Below, one piece after another: positions 1 to 64,000 of a DNA stretch of 64,000 nt; positions within the stretch are counted from its first letter, which is position 1; each line of letters begins with the position of its first letter. Position numbers and translations under genes: made by a program. The DNA lies in NCBI RefSeq assembly GCF_004010195.1, contig NC_057728.1, positions 5,968,175 to 6,032,174 on the forward strand, written 5' to 3'. The stretch comes from Chiloscyllium plagiosum. Its lineage: Eukaryota. Under the pieces are notes generated by a model. That model did not search any database. It had not been told where the DNA came from and saw only the letters and a program-made list of their open reading frames with translations.

Positions 1-150
1 CCAATGTCACATTGAGATGGACGGTCGTCCCAATACCCGGGACTGAGATTCTCAACTACCAAGTGAACACAAACTGCACAAACCACACCAACGGGATCAT
101 CCAGCTACAAACTCACCAACCTGGAAACACCACCAGTTTAGTTCTTACCG
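1..150 (+). CDS. Exon A1 (5'-truncated by window): N-half of FN3 domain 1
   Basis: [49 protein letters not shown]; donor G|gtgggt at 151; paralogous to 39328-39522. Confidence 0.9.
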
Positions 151-3100
151 GTGGGTATCTCAGATCTTACTGAGACTTCTCTGTCCTCAGAGACTGCTTA
201 GCACATTGTCATCTGCTTTCAAGAAAGGAAAAGTAATGATCTGGCCTGTGAAACCTGCTTTAACCATTGTGAGGCATCTGCCTCTTCTCCCACCCCTCCG
301 CCCCTCACTTTCTTTTGATTTAAAGATATTGACTTTTACTAGATCGTAAAAGCAAAGGATGAATTAGGCAAATTAACCGCATGAACCTGCTCTGCCATTT
401 AATACTTTCAAGGGTAGTCTCAGACATTTGTCCTGCTCCTGTTGACTGCACAAAGAAACCCCTTGTATCCAGCAGTAAATTTGCAGCATTTGCTGGTGTT
501 CAACCAAAGTTGGTCATCACTGCCGAGCCCGATCCCTGTTCAGCATCTCCATACAGAGAATCAGAAGGGATGAGTTAGATGGACACGGGATAGCCTCAAA
601 GTTGGGAGGAAGGGCACGGCTTGTGCTGAGTTTTGGGATTCGAGTTTAAAAGGGAGATGAGAGAGTAACGCATCCTGGGCATTGAAGATCTACTTCAGAG
701 ACATTCACCGAACAAGTGTCTTCAGGGACTGAGTTCTGGTTTTCTTTATTGTTAGAGACGCCTGTCTACCAGGTTGTTTTGCTGGCTGCGATCATTTAAC
801 ATTCCAATAGGCTGAAGCACACACCCTTTGAGATTAGATTAGATTAGATTAGATTACTTACAGCGTGGAGACAGGCCCTTCGGCCCAACAAGTCCACACC
901 GACCCGCCGAAGCGCAACCCATCCAGACCCATTCCCCTACATTTACCCCTTCACCCAACACTAGGGGCAATTTAGCATGGCCAATTCACCTAACCTGCAC
1001 ATCTTTGGACTGTGGGAGGAAACCGGAGCACCCGGAGGAAACCCACGCAGACACGGGGAGAATGTGCAGACACGGGGAGAATGTGCAAACTCCACACAGT
1101 CAGTCGCCTGAGGCGGGAATCGAACCCAGGTCTCTGGCGCTGTGAGGCAGCAGTGCTAACCACTGTGCCACCGTGACAATCTTCTCAATGAAATAGCAAT
1201 TAAATTAACAGAAACACACACTGAGAATAACTTAGTAATAAGAACTAATTATATTTATGTAGTCCAGTACCATTGTAAAATATATCAAGATGTTTCATAT
1301 GAATATCATATCATAGAATCACTGCAGTGTGGAAGCAGGCCATTTGGCCCATCAAGTCCACACCGACCCTCTGAAGAGCATCCAGCAACGCCCTCCCCCC
1401 AACCCTATCCCTATAACCCTGCATTTCCCATGGCCCATCCACCTAACCAGCACATCTTTGGACCTGCACACATGGGAGGAAACCGGAGCACGCAGAGGAA
1501 ACCCACACAGACAAGGGGGGAATGCGCAAACTCCACACGTTCACCCAAAGGTAGAATCAAACCTAGGTCCGTGGCACTGTGAGGCTGCAGTGCTAATCAC
1601 TGAGCCACCATGCTGCTCCATACGGACAGTTTAGGGAGGGAATTCCATGGCTAATGCCAAGGTAGCTTAAGGTGGTGACAAAATGAAAATTGGAGATGCT
1701 GAAGAGTCTGATTTGAAGGAATCCATGACGATTAGAATATTTTGGACCAGAGAAAACGATAGTGGTAGAGCAGATCAATGCCAAGAGAAAATTAAAAATA
1801 AGGCCGTAAATTTTAAAAATTGAATTATTACTGGATGTGTTTTGCTGGGATAGGTCCACAAATGTGGGGGATGATGGGTGAAAAAGACTGAGCACAGTGA
1901 GTAGAGTTTTGAATGGGCTCCAGTTTAAGAGGATATAATCTGGTCAAAGGAGCAGGGAGCAGGAATAGAGCTTTGGTCATTCCAAATTTGTGTCAATTCT
2001 CCATTGCAACCAATTCAATCACTTAGATACATAAGAAACTCACAGGGGTATTAATGGAAGTTATTTTTTGCAATTTTAGTATGTAGTCTCATTGACTAAT
2101 GTGACTGAAATTCCAGGTCTGGGCTCCCTATCACTGTGTACCACTGTGATCCAGGTAAACACCTCCTCTGATGGCCTGGTGACCACTCAGCCTTTTACCT
2201 TCAGGACCTACTCTGGTGAGCATTTTCAATTCTCTTCTTTTGTTCCTTGTTCCACAATGACCAGTCATGTGTTCGCGAACAAGTCGCCATAATTCAAGCC
2301 AGTATTTGGAAACAACTTGATGCAAAGTAACTTATTGACAGTTCTCTTCAGGGCTAATTGGACCAAGAGCAAAGCTGTCCTCTGGTTGTTTTATAAAAGT
2401 AATACCAGAAACATTGCAGGATAGCCTCCTTTCAATGGTGCACTATTAATGAGCTGACACTTGGTCAAGAACTGAAGAAAACGTCCCTCAAGATGAGGAA
2501 CTTAAATGATCCTGCAAGTGATATTGGAAATACTGAGAGAAAAAGCAGACTATTAGTTGAACTGGATGAGAGAACTGTAAAACTAATGACTTTAGCGATG
2601 CATTGAGTCAGTCCCATTCTCACCATGTGGTATCATATCAATGTACTATCAGCTCATTGACCAAGTATCATTCTTTGTTCTAGTTCTAATGTTCAGAACA
2701 GGATTGTTGAAAATTCGGTTAGAAACAGGAATGTTTCAGGATTATTAATAATAAGAACAGATTAAAAAATATGGAAAACGTGAGGACTGCAGATGCTGGA
2801 GAATCAGAGTCGAAGAGTGTGGTGCTGGAAAAGCACAGCCAGTCAGGCAGCATCCGAGGAGCAGGAGAGTCGATGTTTCAGGCATAAGCCCTTGCCCGAA
2901 ATGTCGATTCTCCTGCTGCTCACATGTGCTTTTCCAGCACCACACTCTTCGAGATTAAAAAATGTGCAGAATGCAATGGTTCATGAGCTAAGGAAGGCTT
3001 CCCATCTGAGATGAGTAGTCATCAAACTCTTACAACCTGTTTAACAGAGTCAGTCAGCTGTTCAACTGCAAACTAAGGGAAGAAACCAGAACACCTGAGG

Positions 3101-6100
3101 CTCAATGATCATTCCCTCCTTTTCTCCACAGCTTGAGTATACTAATCTCAGCTAAAGATGTGAAATTGTCAGCAGAGTTAAGGAAAGACAATTATATCAG
3201 CCTGAGTTTTCTACCATCACCTCTTCCCACTCCTTGCTTTATCGACTGAGAGTAGATTGTTAAGAGCTGATAGGTTCATGCCTGCCCCTGCTACCTCCCT
3301 ATTGGTGAACAGTGGAGTGGATCTTGAGATCATGCCTGCGTAATACTGGGGTGAAGTGGATCATCTGCTCTTGAATCCTGTAGAACATATTAACATAGGA
3401 AAAACAAGAAAATGAATTTGAGACAAGCTATCATTTCTACTTGGTTTTAAAAGCCATCTAGCAAATTGCAATTTACATTTTATCCATGAGCATTTTCTGC
3501 TGATATTTCATAATACTCTTAAGGTTAATGTATCTTTAATGTTTTTTCTCTTTTGGATAATGATTCCAGAATCTCTGAGTTTGACCTCCATCTCCACCAC
3601 CAGTGCTGTGATCTCCTGGGTCCCTCTTGGGAGTGAGAGTGCTCGGAGGGGCTGCAGTCTGAGCTACTACAGCATTGGGAGCCCCGACACTGTCCACACT
3701 GTCAGCCTCGTCCCAGTCAGTACAGAGGCAGTGATCACAGGTAAGATGGGAAGTCAACTGGCCTTCGTCTCTGTGGACAAGCATTGACGTTCTGTAAAAA
3801 TTCACAGAACATTGAAAAAAATCTTGTACTTTTCAAGATTTTGGACTATCCCGAGGTGTTCAGCTCTTGATTAAAAATGGGGTGTATGTATGTGTGTATG
3901 AGAGAGGGTCTGTGTGAGTGAATGAGTATGTAACAGTGTGTGTTTGTATAGTGTAGTTGGGTCACCTGTAGTGTGACATGAACCCTGGTTGAGGCCAACT
4001 CCATGGGTACCATATTAATGAACCAAAACCTGCAACCCATTCTGAAAGATGAAAGACTGAACAGCAATCTAGGCTTGTTCAATATATCATTTTAATTGCA
4101 TGACACCGCTATGAATTCTGTGTCTTATGATCCTGCCCCACTAGTCACCTGATGAAGGAACAGCGCTCCAAAAGCTAGTGCTTCCAAATACACCTGTAGG
4201 ACTATAACCTTGTGTGATTTTTAACTTGGTCCACCCCAGTCCAACACTGGCACCTCTACATCATAACACTTAATTAGTTTGCTGTAAAATGCACTCCCTA
4301 TTGTAAATCAGGAAATGTATCCAATCATTGTTGCACACCAAGCTGCTGTGGTTCTGTTCGCCGAGCTGGAAGTTTTTGTTGCAAACGTTTTGTCCCCTGT
4401 CTAGGTGACATCCTCAGTGCTTGGGAGCCTCCTGCGAAGGGCTTCTGTGGTGTTTCCTCCGGCATTTATAGTGGCCTGTCCCTGCCGCTTCCAGTTGTCA
4501 GTTTCAGCTGTCCGCTGTAGTGGCCGGTATATTGGGTCCAGGTCTATGTGTTTGTTGATGGAGTTTGTGGATGAGTGCCATGCTTCTAGGAATTCCCTGG
4601 CTGTTCTTTGTTTCGCTTGCCCTATAATGGTAGTGTTGTCCCAGTCAAATTCATGTTGCTTGTCGTCTACGTGTGTGGCTATTAGGGATAGCTGGTCGTG
4701 TCGTTTCGTGGCTAGTTGATGTTTGTGGATGCGGATCGTTAGCTGTTTTCCTGTTTGTCCTATATAGTGTTTTGTGCAGTCCTTGCATGGGATTTTGTAC
4801 ACTACATTAGTTTTGCTCATGCTGGGTATCGGGTCCTTCGTTCTGGTGAGTTGTTGTCTGAGTGTGGCTGTTGGTTTGTGTGCTGTTATAAGTCCTAGTG
4901 GTCGCAGTAGTCTGGCTGTCATTTCAGAGATGTTCTTGATGTATTGCAAATAACCTCCGTCTCCATTTCCCGACTCCCTTCCCAGCCCCTCCCCCTCTCT
5001 TCCACTCCACTTTGCCACCAACCGGATTCATTCCTCCCATTGACCAACCAGGTTGTACACTCTGCTTGTCTTCACCTATCCCCATTTCATCACTTTGTCC
5101 CCCCTTTATCTGCAGCTCCCCTTACACCCACTCCCACTCCTGAAGAAGGGTTGCACCCGAAATGTGGACTTCTCCTCCTGATGCTGCCTGGCTTGCTATG
5201 TTCTTCCAGCCTCCTGTTTGTCTACTTTGGATTCCAGCATCTGTATTTTGTTAGTCTCTAACTTGTATGTTAAAGCAGACAGCTCAGTAACATACCTGTG
5301 TCACCTCAGCTCAGAGGTTAGCCCGAGGCTTGTCACTGTCTGGCAATGTGGGTGGAATGCTCTGAAATTACTCTGGGACATCTCACTGGAGGACAGCATT
5401 AACATAAGACCAGTGAGACCATCCACAAACATGGTCATGGCTGATCTGTCTGGGACTGTCTCTATTAAATGGAAGGAGTATTGAGAGTAAAATTAGATAA
5501 CTACGTATCCAACATGGTGAATATTAACTACAGAATTCAGGAACTTGTATGTAACCATGAGTATTTCTTTTCAGGGTTGGAACCAGACGTGACTTACATC
5601 ATGTCCATTGTATGTGACTCTCTGTCTCCCTGGACACTTCGCTCCCAATCGCTAAATGTCACTACTCTCCCAAGTATGTATTTAGACAATGTATTATTGT
5701 TGTGAAATTGGCATTCGTTCACAGCTACAGAACTAAAATGTTTTCCTCAATCTGACTGCGGCTCTGTTTTATTGGCAGCTTCAAGATTCCTCAGCAACAT
5801 ACAGGCTTCCCATATAACCTCATCGACTGCTATGATTGCCTGGGACGTACACACTTCAGCCGCTGCCCTGGTTGAGTCCTACTCCATTAGCTATGGTCCT
5901 TATGGCACTGCCAGACCCAAGAAGAACATAATTGCTTTCCCTCCGAATACCAAAGTGATCCTCAATGGTAAAGACAGGGTGACCAATCCTGAGGGCATCA
6001 AGGAAGGGGCACTTTGACCAATGTTGGATGGTGTGGGAGTTGGTTGGCCAGTGCTGCACAAGCTAGTGTTGGGGTTGGAGCTGGGGCTGAGGGATTGGGA

Positions 6101-9100
6101 AAGAGACATAAATGTTCCTCACGGGTAAAGCCAGTCAAAGTGAACTGGTATGTCACAGTGTGATTCTGCAATCTTTTTCCTCAATGATGTCAAATTTGCT
6201 TGCAATTTCCCCTGAGTTGAGGAGAGAAAATCAATATCCTTGATGTTGGATTCAGCTGCAGAGCTCACTTCCATTAGGGTCTAATAGAGTCATTAGATAG
6301 TTCCTACCTTTACAGCTTCTCACTAGGCTATATATATGATTTATTAATTATTATTACAGATTGTTAAAATAACAATCAGTGAAGAAGTAGAGCATTAAGA
6401 GTGATGATGACCTGTGAGTATAGGAGTTAGGAGGTTATGTTGCGGCTATATAGGACATTGGTTCAGCCATTTTTGGTCTCCATGCAATAGGAAAGATGTT
6501 GCGAAACTTGAAAGGGTTCAGAAAAGATTTACAATGATATTGCTGGGATTTGAGGGTTTGATCTATAGGGAGAGGCTGAATAGAATGGGGCTATTTTCCC
6601 TGGAGCGTCGGAAGCTAAGGACCTCGTGGAGGTTTGTGAAATCATGAGGGGCATGGATAGGGTGAATAGTCAAGGTCTTTACCCAAGTGTAAGGGAGTCC
6701 AAAACTAGAGGGCATAGGTTAAAGGTAAAAGGGAAAAGATTTAAAAGGGACCCAAGGGACCATTTTTTTCATGCAGAGACTATTGCATGTGTGAAATGAG
6801 CTGCCAGAGGAAGTGGTGGAGGCTAGTACAATTACACCATTTAAAAGGCATCTGGATGTGTACATGAATAGGAAGGGTTTAAAGAGATATGGAGAAAGTG
6901 AGGTCTGCAGATGCTGGAGATCAGAGCTGAAAATGTGTTGCTGGAAAAGTTCAGCAGGTCAGGCAGCATCCAGGGAACAGGAGAATCGACGTTTCGGGCA
7001 TAAGCCTGAAGAATTCCTGAAGAAGGGCTTATGCCCGAAACATCGATTCTCCTGTTCCCTGGATGCTGCCTGACCTGCTGCGCTGTTCCAGCAACACATT
7101 TTCAGCTCAGTTAAAGAGATATGGGCCAAATACTGACAAATGGGGCATTTCTGTGGATAGGTGTGAACGTGATGGCCGCATTACAATTTTAAACACCATC
7201 CTCATTTCAGACAATGTCTTTGATTACTTGTAAGGCACTGTCCTGGTTTTCAGGGTAGGAGATGGCCCAGTGGTATTATCATTAGACTATCAATCCAGAG
7301 ATCCAGGTAATGTCCTTGGGACCTGGTTCAAATACCACCATGGCAGCTGGTGGAATTTTTCAATTGCAATTGAATTCAATAACAAAATCTGGAATTAAGA
7401 GTTGAGTTATGACTATGAAACCATTGCTGATTGTTAGGAAAATAACCCATCTGGTTCACTAATGTCCTTTAGGGAAGGAAAACTGCCATCCTTGCCTGAC
7501 CTGGCCGACATGTGACTCCAGATCCACAGCAGCAGTGACTCTTAACTGCCCTCTGGGCAATTAACATTGGTCCAACCAGTGACACCCACATCCCATCAAA
7601 GTCAGAAAATAGATCCGATACAGAAGGAGTGGATATTCTTTCAGTGATTGCTCACTGTGACATTAACTCAGTTGAGCCCAAATTCCAGCCACTTAACCTG
7701 ACCTTCCACATTAATAAACTCATTCCCCATCAAAACCCACAATTGAATTTGCTTCTACCACATTTTCAGGCAGTGCATTTCAAATCCTAAACAGACACTG
7801 TGTATAAAAAATGCTTTTATTGATTCTTTTGCTTTAAACCTTCTATCGATGTCTACTTTAAAATTAGATGCAAGTTACCAGGTATCCCATTATTTGCCTT
7901 GAATAGGTCTGAGTGAGTCAACTCCATACGTTGTCATTGTTTCTGTGAAAACTTCCTTTGGAGAAGAGAAGACCAGTTCAACATTATATTTTAAAACCAA
8001 AATGTGTAAGTTTTCCAAAAAATATCACATTGTTAATCATTTTGGGTTGGAAGGAGTTGTGCAATTATGAATGTTTCCTTTGAAGTTCCATTCCTTTGTT
8101 TCCATCGTGAAGATACTGTCCAATATGATTGTCTCAGAACATCTACACACTGGCTCAGCCAGCAGAGCTATAATAAGAAGCTGAATTGAAGCATGTGAGA
8201 GGTATTCAAGCCCTGAAAGGTGTCACACCTTCAAATTCCAATACTAGGTAGAACATGGAACTTTACTAATCTAGTAAAACATGGTCAACAAACATTTTTT
8301 GGTGGGGGGGGGGTATTTTAGGGTTTTCTGTGTGACAACTGAGAAGGTCGTCATGTTCATGTCATGTACAGACTTGCAAAAGACATTTGTTAATGTGGCA
8401 CAGCCTTGCCAGTGTTGTTCAAATCCATGGAATAAAAGGGACAGTAGTGGCTGAGGGACCAAGAGTAGAGAGTAGAGGTGACTTAAGGATTTGATGTGGA
8501 AGAAAATTAATCTGGACTTGACTGACTAAAAATGATGATGTTGGGTAACTATTAGATTGTGTTTACTGTGTATTTTAAGATCTTGCAAACTGCACCATAT
8601 ATTTAGTTAGAAATGTAGAAGCATAGAAAATATGACCAGAAATTGGCCATTCAGCTCTTTAACAGTGTTCCCCTATACATTATGACCATGGCTGGTCATC
8701 CAACTCAGTCCCCTGTTCCCACTTTCTCCCCTTTAGCTCTTAGAACTATATCTAACTCCTTTTAGAAAAGGTTTTGGCCTCTGCTGCTTTTTGTAATGGA
8801 GATAGTTTGTGACTCCTGGATCTGGAGTTCCCAGTCATCAGGAACAGACTTTCTGCATTTGCCCTCTCTAATCCTGTTAGAATGATATAGGTTCCTGAGA
8901 TTTTTCTCAGTCTTTGAAGCTCCAGTGAATATAGTCCTAATTGATTGAGTCTCTCCTCAGTCCTCCATCTCAGGAATAATGTTCTGTCAGATGTTCTTAC
9001 CAGCTGAACGTGCCTCTGAGAGCCACGCATGGCAGCAACGTCTCTCCTGATCGGCATACCGATGCCAATTGCTGTGCACGGCACATCAGAAAGGCTGCAT

Positions 9101-54100: not shown

Positions 54101-57100
54101 CGCGTTCCTTCCTCTTCACTGTGTTCAGACAAAGACTTGGTGTACTGCCCCCTCTCCACTTCACGCTCTCTCGGCAGCTCAAAATATCTAACTCCTTTGT
54201 CCTCCTCCCTTCCTCCTACAAGGATTGTCAACTCTTTCCTGGCCTCCTGGAATTGTCGCTAATCTCCAAGACCCTCTGAAGAGCTAAAATAGTCATTTTC
54301 TTTTGACTATTTCTGGTTTGTTTGCTATGAGACAAAAGTTTCTTCACAGGCAGTTATGAATCATGCAATTGGGTCTGCTTGCTTTCTATCTGATACAAGG
54401 TAGTATGCCTAGAGAATGACAAATCAGGCATCTAATTTTTGGAGTTTGTTGGAGGCTGTTCGAGGCCGTGTTGGGGACTGCCAGGAACATGGGTAACTAG
54501 AGTTGGCAACCCATCTCTTAGATATTTCAAGCCATTAAAAGCAATGCTTGCACCACCTTGCTGATTTATCCCTGAATCCTGTCCCTTTATCTTGGATGAA
54601 TGTTTTTGAAAAGGAAAAGTGCAATTAATTTGTTTCCTGCTTCTGCAGTTACAGTCCCATCCAACAAGACCCCAGCAGCCCCTCAGCAAGTGAGGGTGGG
54701 AGAATTCGAATCATACTGTGTGCTTGTCAGCTGGAAACCACCTTCTGCATCCCCGAATGAGACAATACAATACAATGTGAGTACTGTTATGGACTAGGCC
54801 AGACCACTCAAAGCATTGTGGGCGGCACGGTGGCACAGTGGTTAGCACTGCTGCCTCACAGCGCCAGAGACCCGGGTTCAATTCCCGCCTCAGGCGACTG
54901 ACTATGTGGAGTTTGCACGTTCTCCCCATGTCTGCGTGGGTTTCCTCCGGGTGCTCCGGTTTCCTCCCACAGTCCAAAGATGTGCAGCTTAGGTGAATTG
55001 GCCATACTAAATTGCCCGTAGTGTTAGGTAAGGGGTAAATGTAAATGTAGGGGTAGGGGTATGGGTGGGTTGCGCTTCGGCGGGTCGGTGTGGACTTGTT
55101 GGGCCGAAGGGCCTGTTTCCACACTGTAATGTAATCTAATCTAATCTCATTCTTAAACAGGCAGCCCAGACCATAACAATTTGTTATGGTTATAGCAATT
55201 TGTTTTGGTAAGTGTACAGTAAAAATTATTCAGATTAAATTAGCAGGGTTGACTACCAGATTTAAAACAGACAAAAACTTTATTCATAAAGTTACAAATG
55301 AAACATGAAGAACAGAATAAAGAACCCCTACAGACCTCAGTCTATCCAAACTAGACTTAAGTATGTTGTTCTGAATATACACAACAGTCCCAATAAACAA
55401 GCCCCCTTTAAGACACAGTGCAAAAAAGGGTCAGATGCTTACAGGTTGAAGTTAGAAGGGTAGAAGAGAGAGTTACCACACAGCTCACTGTTGAACTCCC
55501 AACCAATTCTGGACTGAACTAACTTGCTCAGCTGGAGAGCTGACCACTCCCCTTTCATTCTACAGGTCACTTCTAAAACATGGCGACTTTAGCCTGAACA
55601 TATAAACAAAAAGGCCTCTCAATACTCTTTAATCTCAGTACCAAACCAGACTGATCAGAGCCCGGCCTGGTTTACTACCCCTCAGGAAAAAAATCAAGGA
55701 CAGTGTCTCCTTGAGCCAAGGAACAGCTTTTAGGAAAAAAGGGACAAGCTTTGTGACAGTAAAAAGCAGGGAGAGAAGGAGTGGGCGGCACGGTGGCACA
55801 GTGGTTAGCACTGCTGCCTCACAGCGCTAGAGACCCGGGTTCAATTCCCGCCTCAGGCGACTGACTGTGTGGAGTTTGCACGTTCTCCCCGTGTCTGCGT
55901 GGGTTTCCTCCGGGTGCTCCGGTTTCCTCCCACAGTCCAAAGATGTGCAGGTCAGGTGAATTGGCCATGCTAAATTGCCCGTAGTGTTAGGTAAGGGATA
56001 AATGTAAGGGTATGGGTGGGTTGTGCTTCGGCGGGTCGGTGTGGACTTGTTGGGCCGAGGGCCTGTTTCCACACTGTAAGTAATCTAATCTAATTCTTGT
56101 AAGTAATCTAATCTAATTCTTAAAACTATTCATAATCTGCTCGGGGTGGTTGCAAAATGGAAAATTCCTTTCTTTTGCTAAAACATCTGTTAAAATATGG
56201 ATGAATTCAGGACCATGGCCTCATTTGAATTTGGCCAATGAATCGTAGGTTCTGAGGCTGTTGTGTTTTGTCAGCAATAAGTCAGTGTGCCCCATTGAGA
56301 GGCGTGCTTGTGATATCATCACTGCATCATAGCATCGGAGGGTGTAAAGACATCATATTCCTCATACTTTGAATCATTTGAAACATGACATGATGCTGGA
56401 AGCAGCTTCTTCAGTTGTTAACTAATGGCATAATATTAGCACAGACATTGAAGAAAGTAATATGTGCATAGAATAGTTAGTTGCAATAAATATCTGTTGG
56501 ATTCTTCAATGTTCCAAAGTCCACACCTAGTTTCTTAATTTATGTGGGAGATCAATTTGAACAGCCTGTTGGAGCCAAAGACTGCTTTAGGGTCTCAGGA
56601 ATATAGACCAGCTAGATAGACGTCATTATAGCTGTTTCACAGAGGTTGTGTTGGAGGTGATAATGTGCCAGGGGTAAGGGGTTGTGGAGGATAGGGTTTA
56701 AGGTCAGTCTATTAAAGATCCAAGGTACTTGCAGGTAATCTGGAAGATTAGCCACCAGCGCTCCAGAAAGAGAACTGATTTTTTTTCCCTCAGTTTTCAT
56801 GGGAACGCTGTTGTACACTAGCCACGCCACATCTCCCTCTTTGGTACAACAGGATATTGGGCTCTCCATGGCTGCAAGATAAAAGAGTGGGGCGACTATG
56901 TTTGGCTAGAAGAGTTCTCACTTCTCAACATCATTCAGGAACCCTGGACTGGAAAGTAGGAACTAATTAAAGTGATAGCTGGACAGAGTTTAAATGTGAT
57001 CTGGGAGTGGGAGTGTGGGGTTTTTTTTAATGACAATCAATGGTAATTCTATCGTCACCATTACTTTACAGTCTGGATTTTTATTAATCTAATTTGAATT

Positions 57101-60100
57101 CTGCCATCATCTATAGAGGGATTTGACCCCATGTACCTACAGCATTAGCCTGATCATCTAGATTAATAGTCCAGTGATATTTCCACTTGATCACCTTTTC
57201 CCCATAAGTAAAAGATTTGTAGAAAGGCGTACTAGAATGATAGCTCAGCATTTTTTCTAATTAAATTACATTTTAACATGAGTCAGCAATCTGTCCAGAA
57301 GAAAGGAAAAGGCTCTCTTTCCCCGTTTGTATGTTATTCCACTTTCATAGTGTCTTAGAGTCCCTACAGTGCAGAAAGAGGCCATTCAGCCCATTGAGTC
57401 CACATCAACCTGCCAAAGAGCATCCCATCCAGACCCATCTCCCCTACCCTATCCTGCATTGCAATCCTGTACATCCCATGGCTAATTCATCTAATCTACA
57501 TATCTCTGGACACTATGGGCAATTTAGCATGGCCAATCCATCTAACCAGCATATCATTGGTCTATGGGAGGAAACCGGAACACCCGAAGGAAACCCATTC
57601 AGACACTGAGAATGTGCAAACTCCACACAGTCAGCCAGCCAGCCAAGACTGGAATCAAATCCAAATTTCAGGCACTGTGGAGTAGCAGTGCTAACCACTG
57701 AGCCAACGTACCACCCTTCAGTGAAAGGGATCTTAATAAAACTGTATGAGACCAGTGCTCACTGTGGTAATAGCACCATCCTCCATATTATTAAGTGTTC
57801 AAACACTCCTCAGCTTCATTTCAGTGTAGTGCTAAAGAAATGAAATGTGCTTGATGGTCTGCCCAACATGTATTCCTCAATCAACATGTCAACCAGATCA
57901 TTAGGCTTTTATTGTCTTTTGCTGTTTGTGGGATCTGGCAGCATCTGAATTAGAAACCTATCAAGGTAATCTAATGCAGCTATAACACTGGCATTTACCC
58001 AGCAAGGTGGAAAAGTCCTGCACACAAAAAGCAAGAGAAACACAACCCAGCCAATTACCGCCTCATCAGTCTATTCTCAATCGTCAGCAAAGTGATGGGA
58101 GGTGTCATTAATAGTTCAATCAAGTGGTTTCTCCACAGAAACCCACTCCTGAATGCTCAGTTCGGAACCCACCAGGACCACTCAGCTCCGGTCACCATTA
58201 CAGCCTAGATCCAAAATGTGGATGAAAGAGCTGATCTCCAGGTGTGAGGTGGGACTGACTATGTGGATGAAAGAGCTGATTTCCAGGTGTGAGGTGGGAC
58301 TGACTATATGGATGAAAGAGCTGATCTCCAGGTGTGAGGTGGGAGTGACTATGTCTGACGTCGTGACAACATTTGTCCGAGTGTGGCATCCAGGATTTCT
58401 AGCAAAAGGTACGTTATTGAGAATTGGGAAACATGCCATTGGATGAAGGCTCAGCGAGAGAAAGTAAGAGGATTCCTGATGAAGGGCTTATGCCCGAAAC
58501 ATCGATTCTCCTGCTCCTCAGTTGTTGCCTGACCTGCTGTGCTTTTTCTGCACCACACTTTTCGACTCTGACTCTCCAGCATCTGCAGTTCTCACTTTCT
58601 CAAAGTAAGATGATTGTTAACTGATTCACTTACTTCCTCTATTATAGTTGGGCAATCAGTGCCGGCCTCGCCCACTTCCAATAAGTAAATATTTCTTGTG
58701 AAAAAACACATTTGCTACAAGATAATGTGTGGATAACATTTTGTTTCTTAAATTAGGAATTCCAAGGCCTTTGACAAGGTCCCTCATGGCAGGCTGATAC
58801 AAAATGTGAAGTCACATGGGATCTGCAGTGATCCTGGTAATATGGATACAGAACTGGATTAGTCATAGAAGACAGAGTAGCAGTGGAAGGGTGTTTTTTT
58901 GATTGGAGATCTGTGACTGGTAGTGTTTCGTAGGGATCAGTGCTGGGACCCCTGTTGTTTCTAATATATATAAGTGGTTTGGAGAAGAATGTAGGTGGCC
59001 TGATTAGTAAGTTTGCAGATGCCACAAAGATTGGCAGACAGTGAGGAGGATATTGCAGGACATAGATAAGCTGAAGACTTGGGCAGAGAAATGGCAGATG
59101 AAGTTTAATCTGGACAAATGCAAGGTGATACATTTTGGAAGATTTAATGCAGGAGGGAAGTATACAGTAAATGGTAGAATCCTTAAAGTATTAACATACA
59201 GAAGCATCTATGCATGCAGGTCCACTGTTCCCTGAAAGTAGCAACATAGTAGATAAGGTGGTCAAGAAGGTATATGACATGCTTGCCTTTGTCGGTCAGA
59301 TTATTAAAATTGGCAAGTCATGTTGCAGCTGTACAGAACTTTAGTTAGGCCACACTTGGAGTATTGTGTACAATCCTGGTCACCACACTACTGTAAGGAT
59401 GTGGAGGCAGTGGAGAAGGTACGGAAATGGTTTACCACAATTTGCCTGGTTTGGAGTGTATTAGCTAGGAGTAGCGATTGAACAAACTTAGTTTGCTTTC
59501 ACTTGAACTTTGAACAATGGGGGAACAACCTGATAGAAGTTACAAAATTACAAGAGGAATGGATACTCTGAGTCTTTCTCCAAGGGTAGAAATGTCAGTT
59601 ACTTGGGGACATAGGTTAAGGTAAAAGGGGAGAAAGTTTAAAGGAAACGTAAGGGGCAGGTTTTGACACAGAGGGTGGTAAGTGTCTGCAATGTGCTGCC
59701 AGAAGAAATAGTGGAGGCAGATACAATAGCAATGTTTAAGAGGCACTTTGACAGATCATGAATAGGCAGGGAATACAAAGATATGCACCATGTCAAGGTA
59801 AAAGATTTTTTATTTCAAAAGGCATTATGTGTTGGTGGGCTGCAAGACCTGTGCTGTATTGTTTCTTCTTCTTTATTCTTTGAGTGAATGGGATTGTCCA
59901 TAATTCTACTTTTGATCATTGGAATGTGGGAACAGAGAAAATTGAGAATTTAGATGAAGTCTTGCCCCTTTGTTTCTAAGCAACAATTTAATGGTGAGGG
60001 TCACTTTAAGATGTTGGCTGATTGGTAAGATAAATATTCCTTTGTTTCAACAGGTTAATGTCCAGGTACCGGATTCCTCACCTGTACGATATACGACAAA

Positions 60101-60240
60101 TGCTAACTATATCTATTTACGAGATTTGCCTCAGAAGCCCACCTATAACATCACTGTTTCTGCGGTGAACCGCCAAGGTGAAGGATCGCCCAGTAAGAAG
60201 GTCTCCCTCAGGATGCTGCAAAAGCAGCAACCTACACCAG
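1..60240 (+). CDS. Partial multi-exon gene for a large extracellular FN3/EGF/cbEGF/CUB mosaic protein (24 exons traced; 5' and 3' ends not identified)
   Basis: 24 exons with AG/GT boundaries and matching phases (1-1, except the last FN3, split 1-0 and 0-1) splice into one open frame of about 1,120 aa with recognisable FN3, EGF and CUB motifs. Confidence 0.88.
831..1174 (-). mobile_element. HE1/V-SINE-type tRNA-derived SINE (young)
   Basis: Reverse complement of the copies at 54819 and 55783; A/B boxes, V-domain core, (AATCT)n tail at 831-856; small internal tandem duplication near 1048-1085. Confidence 0.88.
1312..1617 (-). mobile_element. Older V-SINE-type SINE
   Basis: Diverged core gggaggaaaccggagcac...ggaaacccacac and tRNA-like head. 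Confidence 0.8.
2117..2215 (+). CDS. Exon B1: C-half of FN3 domain 1
   Basis: ttccag|GT CTG...TCT G|gtgag; 99 nt; [33 protein letters not shown]; paralog at 41696-41794. Confidence 0.88.
2774..2951. mobile_element. Fold-back mini-element derived from a Penelope-like terminus
   Basis: Inverted arms gtgtggtgctggaaaagcaca / tgtgcttttccagcaccacac; flanked by agattaaaaaat(a/g)tg direct repeat. Confidence 0.75.
3570..3740 (+). CDS. Exon C1: N-half of FN3 domain 2 (acceptor probably shifted 12 nt relative to paralog)
   Basis: [57 protein letters not shown]; donor gtaaga at 3741; nearest in-phase AG is 3568-3569. Confidence 0.82.
3880..4265 (+). mobile_element. Penelope-like element 3' end / pseudo-LTR fragment (second family)
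   Basis: Decayed hammerhead motif cacCTGATGAaggaacagcgctccaAAAgctagtg at 4146-4180; family assignment is inference. Confidence 0.6.
4340..4945 (-). mobile_element. Penelope-like retroelement fragment with GIY-YIG endonuclease
   Basis: ORF 4401-5021(-): [20 protein letters not shown]...REFLEAWHS; hammerhead-like motif at 4381-4420 (-). Confidence 0.9.
4946..5258 (+). mobile_element. Penelope-like 3' UTR / pseudo-LTR fragment
   Basis: C-rich tract followed by CTGAAGAagggttgcacccGAAA (5140-5162) and the gatgctgcctg...ttccagcatctg terminus shared with the 23095-23935 element. Confidence 0.7.
5575..5673 (+). CDS. Exon D1: C-half of FN3 domain 2
   Basis: tttcag|; [33 protein letters not shown] (L-x-P-x-x-x-Y FN3 motif); donor gtatgt; 99 nt. 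Confidence 0.92.
5779..5967 (+). CDS. Exon E1: N-half of FN3 domain 3
   Basis: ggcag|; [62 protein letters not shown]; donor gtaaag; 189 nt. Confidence 0.92.
6405..7145 (+). mobile_element. CR1-type LINE 3' fragment interrupted by a fold-back element
   Basis: [15 protein letters not shown]...[14 protein letters not shown]...[10 protein letters not shown], typical of the CR1 ORF2 C-terminus. Confidence 0.85.
6893..7110. mobile_element. Fold-back Penelope-terminus mini-element with 14-bp TSD
   Basis: About 85-bp near-perfect inverted arms around 7007-7025; ttaaagagatatgg at 6879-6892 and 7111-7124. Confidence 0.85.
7252..7600 (+). mobile_element. Second tRNA-derived SINE family (related copies near 27240-27525, 49476-49900 and 57015-57200 on -)
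   Basis: tggcccagtggta...ggttcaaatacc head; shared core aatgtcctt(t/c)agg(g)aa..aaa.ctgccat seen in repeated copies. Confidence 0.7.
7907..8005 (+). CDS. Exon F1: C-half of FN3 domain 3
   Basis: gaatag|; [33 protein letters not shown]; donor gtaagt; 99 nt. Confidence 0.9.
8620..9325 (-). mobile_element. CR1-type LINE 3' fragment
   Basis: [37 protein letters not shown] and [12 protein letters not shown] on the - strand. Confidence 0.85.
8977..9126. mobile_element. About 150-bp MITE-like insertion (possibly hAT-type) inside the CR1 fragment
   Basis: Interrupts CR1 sequence caggaa|tcagtctggtaaac; decayed TIRs taatgttc / gaatgttg; degenerate 8-bp flanks ctcaggaa / tcgatgaa. Confidence 0.45.
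9530..10120 (+). mobile_element. Old CR1-type LINE 3' remnant
   Basis: AYDILG...[26 protein letters not shown]-like decayed motifs. Confidence 0.6.
10358..10474 (+). CDS. Exon G: EGF-like domain
   Basis: tgcacag|; [38 protein letters not shown] (6 Cys); donor gtgtgt; 117 nt. Confidence 0.92.
10660..12960 (+). mobile_element. Long CR1-type LINE fragment: ORF1 esterase-like tail, APE endonuclease and RT (disrupted)
   Basis: [12 protein letters not shown]; [27 protein letters not shown]; [45 protein letters not shown]; multiple stops and frameshifts. Confidence 0.93.
12961..13100 (-). mobile_element. Inverted CR1 RT fragment abutting the + strand LINE
   Basis: [17 protein letters not shown] on the - strand. 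Confidence 0.75.
14212..14334 (+). CDS. Exon H1: calcium-binding EGF domain
   Basis: [41 protein letters not shown]; D-x-N-E-C and C-x-N-x-x-G-S-F-x-C motifs; AG/GT; 123 nt. Confidence 0.95.
15260..15913 (+). mobile_element. Unclassified GC-rich retroposon-like insert with (AAATC)n tail
   Basis: GC-rich body ending aataaatcaaatcaaatcaaatc at about 15890-15912. Confidence 0.5.
16463..16585 (+). CDS. Exon H2: calcium-binding EGF domain
   Basis: [41 protein letters not shown]; ctcag|...|gtaaat; 123 nt. Confidence 0.95.
16797..17109 (+). mobile_element. HE1/V-SINE-type SINE
   Basis: gtggtgcagtggttagc...gggtttcctccgggtgctccggtttcctcccac...aatctaatctaatc. Confidence 0.88.
17600..17895 (+). mobile_element. 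CR1-type LINE 3' end (related to 60760-61095)
   Basis: gggagtctaa.actagagg...aggtgagagggg..agatgcaaaag...ttcacacagagg. Confidence 0.65.
18572..18694 (+). CDS. Exon H3: calcium-binding EGF domain
   Basis: [41 protein letters not shown]; cccag|...|gtaagt; 123 nt. Confidence 0.95.
20417..20539 (+). CDS. Exon H4: calcium-binding EGF domain
   Basis: [41 protein letters not shown]; cccag|...|gtaact; 123 nt. Confidence 0.95.
21673..21836 (+). pseudogene. Frameshifted duplicate (pseudo-exon I1) of the cbEGF exon at 22146-22271
   Basis: Same splice sites as I2 but with a 38-bp internal tandem duplication (21732-21769, 21770-21807), giving 164 nt, not a multiple of 3. Confidence 0.85.
22146..22271 (+). 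CDS. Exon I2: calcium-binding EGF domain
   Basis: [42 protein letters not shown]; ttcag|...|gtttga; 126 nt. Confidence 0.92.
23095..23935 (+). mobile_element. Penelope-like retroelement 3' part (GIY-YIG plus pseudo-LTR)
   Basis: CHRRNCKTC...[20 protein letters not shown]...FREHL...TLQPQGIN; hammerhead-like motif at 23804-23834; short inverted terminus follows near 23965-24015. Confidence 0.9.
24310..24820 (+). mobile_element. Old CR1-type LINE 3' remnant
   Basis: Decayed tgtgcacag.tctgatctccatg...agagatgacctga...ggctgaatggtctgtttct. Confidence 0.5.
24997..25122 (+). CDS. Exon J: calcium-binding EGF domain
   Basis: [42 protein letters not shown]; ttgcag|...|gtaagc; 126 nt. Confidence 0.95.
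25926..26765 (+). mobile_element. Penelope-like element: RT fragment, gap, pseudo-LTR end
   Basis: [11 protein letters not shown]...[10 protein letters not shown]...FHPDLKFT...LPFLDLSI (YIDD catalytic motif); hammerhead-like motif at 26674-26701. Confidence 0.88.
26169..26651. other. Assembly gap (483 N)
   Basis: Run of n characters. Confidence 1.
29065..29375 (+). mobile_element. HE1/V-SINE-type SINE
   Basis: Head, core and taatctaatctaatc tail. Confidence 0.88.
29645..29830 (+). CDS. Exon K: Cys/Pro linker plus N-half of a divergent CUB domain
   Basis: [62 protein letters not shown] resembles CUB G-x-I-x-S-P-N-Y-P-x-x-Y...W; ttctag|...|gtaaat; 186 nt, no stops. Confidence 0.85.
29905..30545 (-). 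mobile_element. CR1-type LINE 3' fragment
   Basis: Reverse complement of [15 protein letters not shown] and 3' ORF2 motifs. Confidence 0.75.
32483..32784 (-). mobile_element. HE1/V-SINE-type SINE
   Basis: Near-identical to 831-1174. Confidence 0.9.
33069..33287 (+). CDS. Exon L: C-half of divergent CUB domain
   Basis: [23 protein letters not shown]...[22 protein letters not shown] matches CUB E...DY and V-x-F-x-S...F-x-x-x-Y; acacag|...|gtgagt; 219 nt. Confidence 0.85.
33385..34600 (-). mobile_element. CR1-type LINE RT / 3' fragment
   Basis: [50 protein letters not shown]. Confidence 0.9.
34800..36160 (+). mobile_element. Decayed CR1-type LINE with a nested older SINE (35191-35506, -)
   Basis: [29 protein letters not shown] motifs; SINE core on - strand. 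Confidence 0.75.
36310..37400 (-). mobile_element. CR1-type LINE 3' fragment with a nested, internally deleted HE1-type SINE (36868-37038)
   Basis: [30 protein letters not shown]; [16 protein letters not shown]; (agatt)n plus SINE head. Confidence 0.85.
37768..37945. mobile_element. Fold-back Penelope-terminus mini-element with 14-bp TSD
   Basis: cattccctgagtca at 37754-37767 and 37946-37959; inverted arms. Confidence 0.85.
38012..38131 (+). CDS. Exon M: EGF-like domain
   Basis: [40 protein letters not shown] (6 Cys); ttgcag|...|gtaagg; 120 nt. Confidence 0.92.
38765..39225 (-). mobile_element. Penelope-like 3' fragment
   Basis: Reverse-complement similarity to 23430-23860. Confidence 0.8.
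39328..39522 (+). CDS. Exon A2: N-half of FN3 domain 4 (paralog of A1)
   Basis: ccctag|; [47 protein letters not shown]...SLVFT; donor gtaggt; 195 nt. Confidence 0.92.
40220..41260 (+). mobile_element. Decayed CR1-type LINE
   Basis: [41 protein letters not shown] motifs. Confidence 0.8.
41696..41794 (+). CDS. Exon B2: C-half of FN3 domain 4
   Basis: ttacag|; [33 protein letters not shown]; donor gtgagt; 99 nt. Confidence 0.9.
42170..42560 (+). mobile_element. RTE-clade LINE remnant
   Basis: [21 protein letters not shown] resembles the RTE/BovB C-terminal LLYGSETW motif. Confidence 0.55.
43840..44850 (-). mobile_element. Penelope-like element 3' part with an inverted pseudo-LTR copy at its truncated end
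   Basis: [22 protein letters not shown]; hammerhead-like motif at 43899-43940 (-); 44797-44848 (+) repeats 43865-43914 in inverted orientation. Confidence 0.85.
45314..45496 (+). CDS. Exon C2: N-half of FN3 domain 5
   Basis: cttcag|; [61 protein letters not shown]; donor gtaaga; 183 nt. Confidence 0.92.
46060..46307. mobile_element. Fold-back Penelope-terminus mini-element with TSD
   Basis: Two opposed decayed CTGATGA motifs (about 46180 on -, about 46220 on +); ttccaaatct direct repeat on both sides. Confidence 0.8.
47667..48005 (+). mobile_element. Older V-SINE-type SINE
   Basis: Diverged head and core. Confidence 0.75.
48138..48468 (+). mobile_element. HE1/V-SINE-type SINE
   Basis: Head, core and (aatct)n tail. 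Confidence 0.88.
49722..49801 (+). mobile_element. 80-bp Penelope-terminus fragment with 13-bp TSD, inserted in a SINE
   Basis: ccctctgaaatag at 49709-49721 and 49802-49814. Confidence 0.75.
50761..50859 (+). CDS. Exon D2: C-half of FN3 domain 5
   Basis: tttcag|; [33 protein letters not shown]; donor gtatgt; 99 nt. Confidence 0.93.
50973..51161 (+). CDS. Exon E2: N-half of FN3 domain 6
   Basis: ggcag|; [62 protein letters not shown]; donor gtaaag; 189 nt. Confidence 0.92.
51612..51892 (+). mobile_element. Older V-SINE-type SINE
   Basis: ggtggctcagcggttagcactgctgcctcacagc head and deleted core. Confidence 0.75.
52337..53008 (+). mobile_element. Probable solo LTR (672 bp) inserted in a - strand CR1 remnant
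   Basis: CTGC direct repeat on both sides; ends in CA (start TA rather than TG); TATA-like tataaa near 52865 and AATAAA near 52941. Confidence 0.6.
53449..53547 (+). CDS. Exon F2: C-half of FN3 domain 6
   Basis: taacag|; [33 protein letters not shown]; donor gtaagt; 99 nt. Confidence 0.92.
54649..54776 (+). CDS. Exon N: N-part of FN3 domain 7 (phase 1-0)
   Basis: ctgcag|; [42 protein letters not shown]; donor gtgagt. Confidence 0.9.
54819..55146 (+). mobile_element. HE1/V-SINE-type SINE (young)
   Basis: Full head ggcggcacggtggcacagtggttagc, B box gggttcaattccc, core and tail. Confidence 0.92.
55182..55758 (-). mobile_element. Possible solo LTR
   Basis: Termini TGTTAT...GTGACA; AATAAA on - strand near 55278; no TSD found. 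Confidence 0.45.
55783..56120 (+). mobile_element. HE1/V-SINE-type SINE (young) with duplicated tail
   Basis: Near-identical to the 54819 copy; gtaagtaatctaatctaattctt occurs twice in tandem. Confidence 0.92.
57346..57716 (-). mobile_element. Older V-SINE-type SINE
   Basis: Diverged core and head on - strand. Confidence 0.75.
57960..58420 (+). mobile_element. LINE RT fragment (L2/CR1-clade) containing a 45-bp tandem repeat
   Basis: [23 protein letters not shown]...FVRVWH. Confidence 0.7.
58216..58350 (+). repeat. Tandem repeat, 3 x 45 bp
   Basis: atgtggatgaaagagctgatctccaggtgtgaggtgggactgact at 58216, 58261 and 58306. Confidence 0.95.
58470..58601 (+). ncRNA. Penelope-like terminus with the best-preserved minimal hammerhead-ribozyme motif (58476-58503)
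   Basis: CUGAUGA-A-GGGC-uuau-GCCC-GAAA-CA-UC; other copies read GAAACGUC. Confidence 0.6.
58757..59860 (+). mobile_element. CR1-type LINE RT / 3' fragment
   Basis: [62 protein letters not shown]. Confidence 0.9.
60054..60240 (+). CDS. Exon O: C-part of FN3 domain 7 (phase 0-1)
   Basis: caacag|; [62 protein letters not shown] (Y-x-x-x-V-x-A-x-N-x-x-G-x-G); donor gtaagg. Confidence 0.92.
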
Positions 60241-60246
60241 GTAAGG

Positions 60247-60427
60247 TTCAAAGGCATCACCTCGCATTTGACGAGATTAAACTTCATCTGCCATTTCTCT
60301 GCCCAAGTCTTCAGCTTGTCTATATCCTGCAATATCCTCCTCACTGTCCGCCAACCTTTGTGGCATCTACAAACTTGCTAATCAGGCCACCTGCATTTCT
60401 TCTCCAAACCACTTATACATGTTAGAA
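60247..60427 (-). repeat. Inverted copy of CR1 segment 58958-59139, starting just after the exon O donor
   Basis: About 90% identical by eye, with shared private deletions. Confidence 0.85.
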
Positions 60428-60759
60428 CACTCACAGGGGTCAGCAAGATGACAAATTGAGAAACTATTGGAAATATGAGTGGTTTTCTCCTGACTGAATC
60501 CTCTATTTCAAGTACCCACTGAAAGAAACTTCATCTTTGTTATGATCATTTTCCAATGCAAGCAGTTCAAACTCATTTAATTCTCTGATTCCCTACTTCT
60601 CTTTGCTCTTTAAGGTCCTCCTTAACATCTATCTTTTTGACCAAACATTTGAATACCATTTCATTCCCTGCTTTAATTTTTTTTGTTGTCCAACAAGCAC
60701 ACCATGGAATGTTTTGTGTTGTCAAAGGCACTACATAAATGTGAATTATATATTATCTA

Positions 60760-61095
60760 CAAAATCATGAGAGGTATATATAGGGTAGATAGCCAACAGC
60801 TTTTCCCTGTGGTAGGGGAGTCTAAAACTAGAGGTTTAAGGTGAGGGGGGAGAGATGCAAAAGGGTCCAGAGGAGCAGTATTTTCACACAGAGGGTGGTG
60901 AGTGTCTGGGACGGGCTGCCAGAGGTAATGGTGGAAACAAGTACAATTTTGTCATTTAACAGGTCCATGGAGGGATAGGCATGGAGGGATATGGATCAAA
61001 TGCAGGCAAATGGGACAAGTTTAATTGTGAGAACTGGCCGGTAGGGGCAAGTTGGGTCAAAGAGCCTGTTTCCGTACTGTAGACCTCTATGACTT
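60760..61095 (+). mobile_element. CR1-type LINE 3' end
   Basis: YKIMRGI.RVD...FFTQRVVSVW.GLP motifs. Confidence 0.75.
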
Positions 61096-62044
61096 GATGA
61101 GTCTGAATGGTTTTCTTGTAACTCTGGGGTAAGAGTGATGAAAATTCAAGTCAAGTTACAGTCTCTTCAGTCGATGTCTCAAGGTCTTCATGATCCACCC
61201 TGGAATGTATCACACAGTCTGATGAACCATTGCAGCACCAATGTAACATGTTGAACACGGCACCTTTTGCATCAGACTTAAAAACTCTCTTATCTTCACG
61301 AGCTATTCCAGAGAGAGGTGGCTTTTTTCAGCGGTACTGGAAGGTATTGCTCTTGCCACCCCAATATTTATATGTTGGCCCAGTTAATGGTGGAGGATTC
61401 AGCAATAGTTGGATATCATTGGAGTGGCTAAACTCTCCTTTTGGAGATGGTTATTGGAAGGCATTTATGTGGTGCAAATGTTACTTGCCCCTTGTCAGCC
61501 GGGCCGGCTGTTGTCCAGGTCATGCTCCAGAAGGCAAACATTGCTTCAGGAGTCACAGATTGTGTAGTCATCAGAGAGGTTTCTCACCACTGTCTTCATC
61601 ATGGAGTGAAGGTCATTGATGAAGCACCTAATGGTGACTGAGGCTTGGATACTCCCCTGAAATAATCAACCTCCAATCGCCATGATAACAATGCAATCAT
61701 AGAATCCCACCAGTGTGGAAAAACTGAATCCAAAGAGCCAGATTTTCCAAGGACTGGCAATTTGCATTCAGCCTTGTCTTATACCCGAAAAGTAGAGAGC
61801 TTCCACGGGAGATCCCACTCGGTGCTCCCTCACAAATGTTCTATGTTAACATTAACATGGTAATGTTTCTTTATGCCTATAAAAACATGAACACAGTGCC
61901 TACTCCTGACGCCAGGAGGAGTTTGTACTCTGCAACTTCCTCATGACCTTCTGAAGGTGACGTTCCTAGAATCGGCCACAGTGCAGCCGAGACCTTACCA
62001 GTGATTTGTAAAGGTTTGGCATGTCTTGCTTCTGTGTGTCACAT

Positions 62045-63799: not shown

Positions 63800-64000
63800 A
63801 GGTTCCTTCCACATCCAACAGAAATTTACCAGTACCTCTACCAATCTCATCTCCTGCAAAAGATGCACTCGGTCTGGTCTCCTCTACATCGGGGAGACAG
63901 GATGCCAACTTGCGGATTGTTTCAGACAACATCTCTGGGACACCCGTACCAACCAACCCCACCGACCCGTGGCTGAACACTTCAACTCCCCCTCTCACTC
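63800..64000 (+). mobile_element. Penelope-like GIY-YIG fragment running off the window
   Basis: [20 protein letters not shown]...CFRQHL; similar to 23250-23445. Confidence 0.8.

Follow-up and report, generated by a model that had tools for sequence, protein, structure and literature searches.

The stretch of DNA analysed here (the window) comprises 64,000 nt of the forward strand of Chiloscyllium plagiosum NC_057728.1 (GCF_004010195.1, 5,968,175-6,032,174), and raises the question of what kind of protein is encoded by the long exon series that it carries. The original prediction had read it as part of an unassigned mosaic protein, a receptor or matrix protein of about 1,120 residues with neither terminus in the window. 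The exons were placed via six-frame translation, and every boundary was then read. Positions 1-60,240 contain 24 plus-strand exons bounded by GT donors and AG acceptors, with exon 1 being cut by the window start (Table 1). Splicing them yields 3,372 nt, which correspond to 1,123 codons with zero stops and the domain order FN3x3-EGF-cbEGFx6-CUB-EGF-FN3x4, as had been predicted. The donors are phase 1 in 23 of the 24 exons, as expected for the proposed phase-1 exon modules, and the intron between exons 23 and 24, inside the last FN3, is phase 0. The C. plagiosum RefSeq protein XP_043564920.1 (LOC122559483, "uncharacterized") corresponds to residues 523-1123 of the spliced product, with no mismatch over 601 residues, and XP_072407533.1 of C. 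punctatum is colinear with all 1,123 residues (91% identity, one cbEGF fewer). The exact match and the colinearity hence confirm the splicing independently, and part of the window gene already figures in RefSeq under an uncharacterized gene. The RefSeq model begins at an internal Met within exon 13, and the C. plagiosum locus is split. As the downstream part of this model gave no tblastn match to the window, neither protein terminus lies inside the window. The long minus-strand open reading frames revealed no second host gene by eye, and an EGF/FN3 motif scan of the window gave no minus-strand match.

Table 1. Exons and other features of the window (positions in the window; nt, nucleotide).
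Feature	Position	Strand	Content	Remark
Exon 1 (5' truncated)	1..150	+	First half of FN3a, internal module	95% nt identical to exon 17
Exon 2	2117..2215	+	Second half of FN3a	95% identical to exon 18
Exon 3	3570..3740	+	First half of FN3b	90% identical to exon 19
Exon 4	5575..5673	+	Second half of FN3b	73% identical to exon 20
Exon 5	5779..5967	+	First half of FN3c	fn3 E 0.028; 78% identical to exon 21
Exon 6	7907..8005	+	Second half of FN3c	71% identical to exon 22
Exon 7	10358..10474	+	EGF	EGF_3 E 3.8e-8; candidate Notch-type O-glucose and O-fucose consensus sites
Exon 8	14212..14334	+	cbEGF	One of four near-identical tandem exons (8-11)
Exon 9	16463..16585	+	cbEGF	Near-identical tandem exon
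Exon 10	18572..18694	+	cbEGF	Near-identical tandem exon
Exon 11	20417..20539	+	cbEGF	Near-identical tandem exon
Extra exon 12 copy	21674..21837	+	Frameshifted, 38-nt tandem duplication	Left out of spliced model
Exon 12	22146..22271	+	cbEGF-like	Aromatic consensus residue replaced; weak GTTTGA donor
Exon 13	24997..25122	+	cbEGF	Internal Met is RefSeq model start
Exon 14	29645..29830	+	Cys/Pro-rich lead-in, then first half of divergent CUB	
Exon 15	33069..33287	+	Second half of CUB	
Exon 16	38012..38131	+	Non-Ca EGF	Pfam
Exon 17	39328..39522	+	First half of FN3a, last module	
Exon 18	41696..41794	+	Second half of FN3a, last module	
Exon 19	45314..45496	+	First half of FN3b, last module	
Exon 20	50761..50859	+	Second half of FN3b, last module	
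Exon 21	50973..51161	+	First half of FN3c, last module	
Exon 22	53449..53547	+	Second half of FN3c, last module	
Exon 23	54649..54776	+	First half of single, non-repeated FN3d	Phase-0 donor
Exon 24	60054..60240	+	Second half of FN3d	Phase-1 donor; next intron precedes uroplakin-type domain, beyond window
Local duplication	21506-21888, 21979-22323		Surroundings of exon 12	345 aligned bases, 1 mismatch, one 38-nt gap
Assembly gap	26169-26651		483 bases, intron 13/14	Adjoins retroelement-like sequence
Fragmented LINE	11011-12541	+	Endonuclease PF03372, reverse transcriptase PF00078	E 1e-12 and E 1e-8, respectively
LINE-like fragments	near 58900-62700			Similar to the above
GIY-YIG-like open reading frames	22856-23857 (+), 63744-63998 (+), 4404-5027 (-)		Resemble endonuclease remnants	Presumably of Penelope-type elements
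SINE-like copies (examples)	838-1175, 16798-17114, 29054-29377, 32482-32784, 48139-48468, 54818-55145, 55781-56094	both		
MITE-like short elements	6924-7108, 37801-37946, 46095-46311, 62738-62923		Long terminal inverted repeats	Many partial copies across window

The surroundings of exon 12 form a near-perfect local duplication. The frameshifted copy of this exon is either a recent duplicate or an assembly artefact, and an artefact here possibly explains why the RefSeq model starts at exon 13. The assembly gap in intron 13/14 could hide an extra EGF exon, yet the orthologues pass directly from the exon 13 cbEGF to the CUB. Aside from the exons, the window is strewn with mobile elements, including a SINE-like interspersed family of ~330 bp whose copies are 77-93% identical. 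Two of the GIY-YIG-like open reading frames were scanned and had no Pfam match, and ARAGORN found no intact tRNA gene in the window.

We then inspected the individual domains. EGF-family Pfam matches were obtained for eight exons (7-13 and 16), with best E values from 1e-12 to 5e-7. The strict Ca-binding consensus is present in five of the six cbEGFs; in exon 12, a Ser replaces the aromatic residue, and the score of 26.7 bits falls below the cut-off of 27. The consensus that we take to be that of Notch-type glycosylation predicts O-fucose sites in exons 7-11 and an O-glucose site in exon 7. The fn3 matches of the FN3 half-exons are weak (four of 14 reach E<=0.03, and none reaches the curated cut-off), as against E 1e-19 to 1e-48 in full-length orthologues. 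Exons 14-15 alone have no Pfam match, and a paralogous copy matches CUB at E 0.015, below the cut-off. Per-exon Pfam scanning is hence insufficient as proof of FN3a or CUB, and fold comparison was required. For this we used the paralogous copy P0006, which shares 93% identity over exon 15; its AlphaFold model was made from an alignment of 9 and has a mean pLDDT of 59.5. Its residues 32-147 superpose on the Kremen1 CUB with Z 11.6 and a root mean square deviation (rmsd) of 2.0 over 98 aligned residues, and also on the CUB domains of MASP-1/3 and TSG-6 (Z 10.8). Its first FN3 (residues 184-279) superposes on an integrin beta4 FN3 (Z 12.6, rmsd 2.2, 93 aligned). The best Atlas clusters for the CUB-containing region are CUB (0.90), and the CUB-containing fragment has no significant sequence match in the PDB. 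As judged from the predicted model, exons 14-15 thus adopt the CUB beta-sandwich fold type. The predicted domain order therefore stands, with the EGFs identified via Pfam and the CUB and FN3 via fold.

The view of the window as a unique alternating mosaic had to be given up. Self-BLAST identified exons 1-6 as copies of exons 17-22, with nucleotide identity dropping along the unit from 95 to 71% (Table 1), and exons 8-11 are themselves tandem duplicates. The window contains the end of one super-module and the next one entire, namely ~1.5 copies of a tandem [EGF array-CUB-EGF-FN3x3] unit. Some intron flanks are also 0.50-0.75 identical between units, versus a random median of 0.47 and a 95th percentile of 0.57. 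Comparison of these units gives pS 0.214 and pN 0.137. Exon 3 versus exon 19 is the sole pair with dN > dS (dN 0.135, dS 0.036); its differences are nearly all replacements, and the excess is not significant (Fisher p 0.165). Positive selection between the two units of the window is unsupported. The FN3b junction differs between these two exons, as the upstream acceptor that serves the last module is gone from the internal copy (exon 3), whose start therefore lies 12 nt further on; the shorter junction also occurs in the C. punctatum internal copies.

Module maps of the orthologous gene models show [EGF array-CUB-EGF-FN3a-b-c] units in sharks. One Mobula model of 3,481 residues has six CUB modules, and its internal modules contain FN3a only. 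The paired models of Cetorhinus and of C. punctatum, on contigs of equal length, abut in the EGF array and together make four modules. C. plagiosum has an additional copy, 97% identical to unit 1 over 140 residues, and would therefore contain at least three modules. Four RefSeq isoforms of Mobula birostris (P0021, P0012, P0020, and P0022) differ by a skipped 42-residue cbEGF or by 12-36 residues of the tail, which suggests alternative splicing in rod and tail. We then built a tree of 25 CUB copies taken from gene models, from which the window copy was omitted because of its identity to P0004. Like the other repeat trees, it has gene models as rows, with possible assembly errors among them. The CUB copies cluster by genus (Mobula, six rows, 99/98; Cetorhinus, four rows, 96/87; Chiloscyllium, eight rows, 99/97), as do the two S. 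canicula rows (100/99), and the two Stegostoma copies form no clade. Between genera, the copies are 65-91% identical. Among the FN3b copies, grouping those of the last module into one clade is rejected (8 versus 10 rows, p-AU 0.002), and for FN3c, the last-module copies separate from the internal ones (78/94, unstarred). The repeats have been homogenised within lineages through exon and module duplication. This homogenisation, or repeated lineage-specific re-expansion, thus fades toward the membrane-proximal end, in agreement with the identity gradient in the window.

A search with exon 15 retained 11 proteins from 17 candidates, all from sharks. Unfiltered HMMER with exon 15 only against 1.84 billion representatives gave 12 matches, and the six at E<=1e-30 are all elasmobranch; the weaker ones are a sea-urchin CUB protease, a hemichordate tolloid-like protein, and four unnamed records. 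All close relatives found are elasmobranch and represent ten species (two Chiloscyllium, Stegostoma, Rhincodon, Cetorhinus, Heterodontus, two Scyliorhinus, Mobula, and Leucoraja). Their automatic names are "fibrillin-1-like", "Notch-like", "pro-EGF-like", and "uncharacterized", which bears out the expected fibrillin-like labels, with no tenascin label among the relatives. Word-indexed searches with the juxtamembrane region retained none of 853 candidates among proteins of 30-640 residues and six of 623 among those of 30-1913 residues, the six being elasmobranch orthologues. Both searches missed the ordinary uroplakins, which score 45-51 bits by HMMER. Diverged long forms in bony vertebrates or chimaeras are therefore compatible with these results. 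Restriction of the CUB module to elasmobranchs is likely on the matches obtained, and that of the anchor is unproven. The presumed chondrichthyan restriction accordingly holds as far as searched, for elasmobranchs, with searches too insensitive for diverged forms. No colinear orthologue with a functional name was found, as had been anticipated. In the literature searched, mostly non-subscription, six loci or accessions of the relatives are unnamed, and the architecture is undescribed in uroplakin papers retrieved by elasmobranch, cartilaginous fish, PTPRQ, or domain terms. In the accessible part of PMC5336234, "shark", "cartilaginous", and "CUB" do not occur.

What follows exon 24 was read from the orthologues, in which a domain of 170 residues is followed by one hydrophobic helix and by a Ser/Thr/Gln-rich low-complexity tail of 355-452 residues. 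Exactly one hydrophobic helix is present in all five models tested among those with a transmembrane (TM) segment. The PTP signature HCxxGxxR is absent from all five tails, which also have no Pfam domain, and no phosphatase family was reported by Pfam for the full-length models scanned. Of the features that had been suggested for the flanks, the orthologue models thus have the TM helix, but no ZP, PTP, or 7TM domain, and none of 17 model N-termini inspected has a convincing signal peptide. For two single proteins, the top PDB match is uroplakin 3A, with E 2.5e-11 for the complete RefSeq protein. A profile of five orthologous juxtamembrane domains has one match among 177,635 PDB sequences, again uroplakin 3A (E 1.1e-12). 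Pfam reports weak Uroplakin_II matches in three of these five domains. Foldseek ranks a uroplakin 3A chain first (E 1.1e-4) and another chain of the same uroplakin complex second (E 0.064), at a TM score of 0.28 and rmsd 20, with a query model of pLDDT 54. The juxtamembrane fold match leans on sequence because this model is of low confidence, and VIA-align of the model gave TM-helix matches only (best Z 5.8).

The UPK2/3 family has been defined by its juxtamembrane domain, cysteines C1-C4, intron phases 1,1,2,1,2, and a C3-Xn-C4-NGPL motif (PMC5242461). Four Cys are invariant in all five rows and align with C1-C4 of UPK3A. The residues after C4 are [DN]-[KR]-[PQL]-L, i.e. a degenerate NGPL, from which the UPK2b and UPK3a rows also deviate in the accessible part of the published alignment. 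The TM-entry motif R-S-A-G-M-I-[IV]-I-T matches, by eye, the UPK2/3 sequences in the accessible part of the PMC3922775 supplement, whose consensus, R-[ST]-[AG]-G-M-[IV]-V-[IL]-T, is our own reading rather than a published criterion. Intron 1 of the uroplakin-type domain is phase 1 in the window DNA, and Gly read-through in three truncated models points to phase 1 for introns 2 and 4. Models of seven species contain the junction of FN3d with this domain. On visual comparison and motif search, the domain matches none of the shark or skate UPK2a, 2b, 3a, or 3b sequences in the portion of PMC3922775 at hand. A furin-type R-x-K-R lies directly before the TM in Cetorhinus and S. torazame (P0002 and P0028), not in Chiloscyllium or Mobula, and could permit shedding in some lineages. 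As judged from sequence similarity, the membrane-proximal unit is homologous to uroplakin 3A. The protein is hence assignable, rather than unassigned, and its uroplakin-type domain and single TM therefore make it a protein of the membrane, not of the matrix.

Like UPK2/3 (UPK3A/3B/3C/3D and UPK2A/2B), the protein has a long FN3-like juxtamembrane domain with four Cys, the TM-entry motif, a single pass, a phase-1 intron before the domain, and no catalytic domain. Unlike them, it has an ectodomain of up to about 3,100 residues and a tail of 355-452 residues, whereas in known members the extracellular part stays under 200 residues and the tail is short or missing (PMC5242461). Because these sizes break the family description, we filed it as a variant: it is UPK2/3-related, not a canonical member. 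An R3 phosphatase is ruled out. In the R3 PTPs PTPRQ and PTPRB and in Ciona "Nocat", FN3 repeats likewise precede the same juxtamembrane domain and one TM, and CionaNocat is also without a phosphatase. The R3 PTPs differ in having a PTP domain and ectodomains of FN3 only, without cbEGF arrays or CUBs, and in lacking the uroplakin-type TM motif. SUSD1 (Atlas rank 12) likewise lacks a phosphatase and combines EGF and FN3 with a PTP-related juxtamembrane domain and a single TM. Its clusters carry Sushi and Fn3_PTPRU (PF23144). In our protein, Pfam reports Sushi in none of the full-length models, and CUB repeats are found instead. Fn3_PTPRU was reported for none of the five juxtamembrane members, and two Atlas clusters bearing it score 0.88 and 0.83. 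SUSD1 is a look-alike, and was rejected as the identity because of its Sushi domains. UMODL1, tenascins, SCUBE, cubilin, fibrillins, and adhesion GPCRs share EGF/cbEGF, FN3, or CUB modules with the protein. The defining domains are GAIN and 7TM for adhesion GPCRs, ZP for UMODL1, the fibrinogen globe for tenascins, and TB for fibrillins. In contrast to these mosaics, Pfam scans of the full-length models detected no ZP, SEA, fibrinogen, TB, GAIN, or 7TM domain.

Taken from the gene models, the architecture is very probably that of one giant elasmobranch type I membrane glycoprotein gene, of which the window exons form the middle. Its product would consist of a repeat unit [EGF/cbEGF array-CUB-EGF-FN3x1-3] in about one to six copies, one FN3, a juxtamembrane domain of uroplakin-2/3 type, a single TM helix, and a long, disordered tail devoid of catalytic domains. 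A single model in C. punctatum covers the two units of the window, and the six CUBs of Mobula likewise come from one model. On the whole, we favor as the probable reading a giant single-pass, apical, tetraspanin-partnered, multivalent adhesion or scaffold receptor, whose partner, tissue, and ligand we infer. By analogy with UPK2/3, the uroplakin-type unit would pair with the tetraspanin UPK1a or 1b and thereby reach the apical epithelial membrane. In the accessible text of PMC3404999, ER exit of UP3a requires UP1b, and zebrafish Upk3l is apical and gets there without UP1b; the cryo-EM study of uroplakins describes, in the part available, Ib/IIIa heterodimers and IIIa-IIIa contacts (PMC10560298). 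Tetraspanin pairing, which we hold to be somewhat probable, is not guaranteed, as the huge ectodomain fits the packed 16-nm uroplakin particle badly and Upk3l traffics without UP1b.

Arrays of cbEGF stiffen with Ca and would here space the CUB domains as repeated binding sites, and domain sizes would give a rod of the order of 100 nm. The Ca-stiffened cbEGF arrays and FN3 spacers would thus hold evenly spaced CUBs on such a rod, which could act as a multivalent adhesion, a tether, or a glycocalyx scaffold with its reach set by the repeat number. The chances of an apical adhesion or scaffold role are about even. The tail may couple to the cortex or to signalling via a conserved tyrosine motif and many Gln-Thr motifs. 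Its first 70 residues are conserved and the remainder is divergent; the tyrosine motif is invariant 14-16 residues past the TM in all four aligned tails. Each tail has 9-15 QT motifs versus 2.7-3.9 expected from shuffles, a count inflated by internal repeats, and 0-2 TQT triads. In the accessible parts of two studies, LC8 binds motifs of 8-10 residues anchored on Gln with flanking Thr (PMC12057147), and many weak LC8 sites can stiffen a disordered linker (PMC12803091). The QT motifs resemble multivalent LC8 sites, and coupling to LC8 is a tentative, rather doubtful proposal.

A different reading sees the protein as a relic of a phosphatase-less R3 receptor like Ciona "Nocat", either sister to all uroplakins or nearer to PTPRQ, acting as a PTPRQ-like surface link independently of tetraspanins, with EGF and CUB as later additions. 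The FN3 repeats directly upstream of a long juxtamembrane domain, as in PTPRQ and PTPRB, would agree with it, as would the PTP-less FN3 intermediate described in tunicates (PMC5242461), a weak match of the Cetorhinus row to PF18861 PTP_tm (E 0.008, one of five members), and, as a lead only, PTP_tm in 17% of the members of the top Atlas cluster (score 0.88). However, the TM-entry motif is of uroplakin type, and by eye it is missing from the fish PTPRQ and CionaNocat rows compared in the accessible part of the PMC5242461 supplement. Moreover, lamprey, shark, and skate UPK2/3 genes are listed in the portion of PMC3922775 available, which makes a secondary gain of the ectodomain at phase-1 intron 1 equally simple. 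We therefore regard the relic as unlikely. Just as unlikely is a reading in which the protein would be a living long-ectodomain form at the base of UPK2/3, the vertebrate counterpart of the proposed phosphatase-less intermediate between PTPRQ and uroplakins, now serving as a tetraspanin-anchored, length-tunable, multivalent tether with CUBs on a Ca-stiffened outer rod, an LC8-stiffened inner tail, and lineage-homogenised repeats.

The lineage-wise homogenisation also recalls gamete recognition, as the repeats of abalone VERL and sea-urchin EBR1 are homogenised within a lineage. The protein would then mediate recognition at the gamete surface and, like UPIIIa in eggs, signal via a tyrosine in its tail. 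In frogs and mice, uroplakin IIIa functions in fertilisation via Tyr phosphorylation of its tail (PMC6340209, in the part available), with which the invariant tyrosine motif would fit. This role is nevertheless improbable: the juxtamembrane GRR protease site of UPK3a is not conserved, being dibasic in Mobula only (one of five), pN stays below pS between units with the excess in exon 3 versus 19 not significant, and the CUB copies are still well conserved across genera. Highly improbable is a tandem gene cluster or prediction fusion, in which the upstream modules would encode matrix proteins of EGF, CUB, and FN3 that are secreted, and membrane binding would be limited to the last unit or to an independent short uroplakin: separate RefSeq models on contigs of equal length (C. 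plagiosum, C. punctatum, Cetorhinus, and S. canicula) and several models without TM speak for it, but the split models have no signal peptides and begin or end inside domains or run into introns, the Cetorhinus and C. punctatum pieces meet in the EGF array, two models connect two or six modules to the TM, the junction of FN3d with the uroplakin-type domain recurs in seven species, and neither a terminal nor a leader exon was found between the window units.

The giant uroplakin-related receptor is real, partly annotated, and apparently undescribed. UPK2/3 have been derived from a PTPRQ-like receptor gene by loss of the phosphatase and of all but one FN3, with a tunicate gene as the only intermediate (PMC5242461). 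A vertebrate gene with both FN3 repeats and a uroplakin-type membrane unit makes this history directly testable, the alternatives being a retained intermediate and a uroplakin that regained a huge ectodomain through exon shuffling. It further offers a clear example, in a vertebrate, of concerted evolution acting on a super-module of several exons, one that is fragmented and misnamed by annotation pipelines. Sharks and rays are urea-retaining animals. The gene adds to their set an apparently unrecorded uroplakin relative, and uroplakin function in these animals is unstudied in the literature searched. Their combination of adhesion modules with an anchor otherwise known from the small uroplakins of the bladder lining may help explain how uroplakins evolved.
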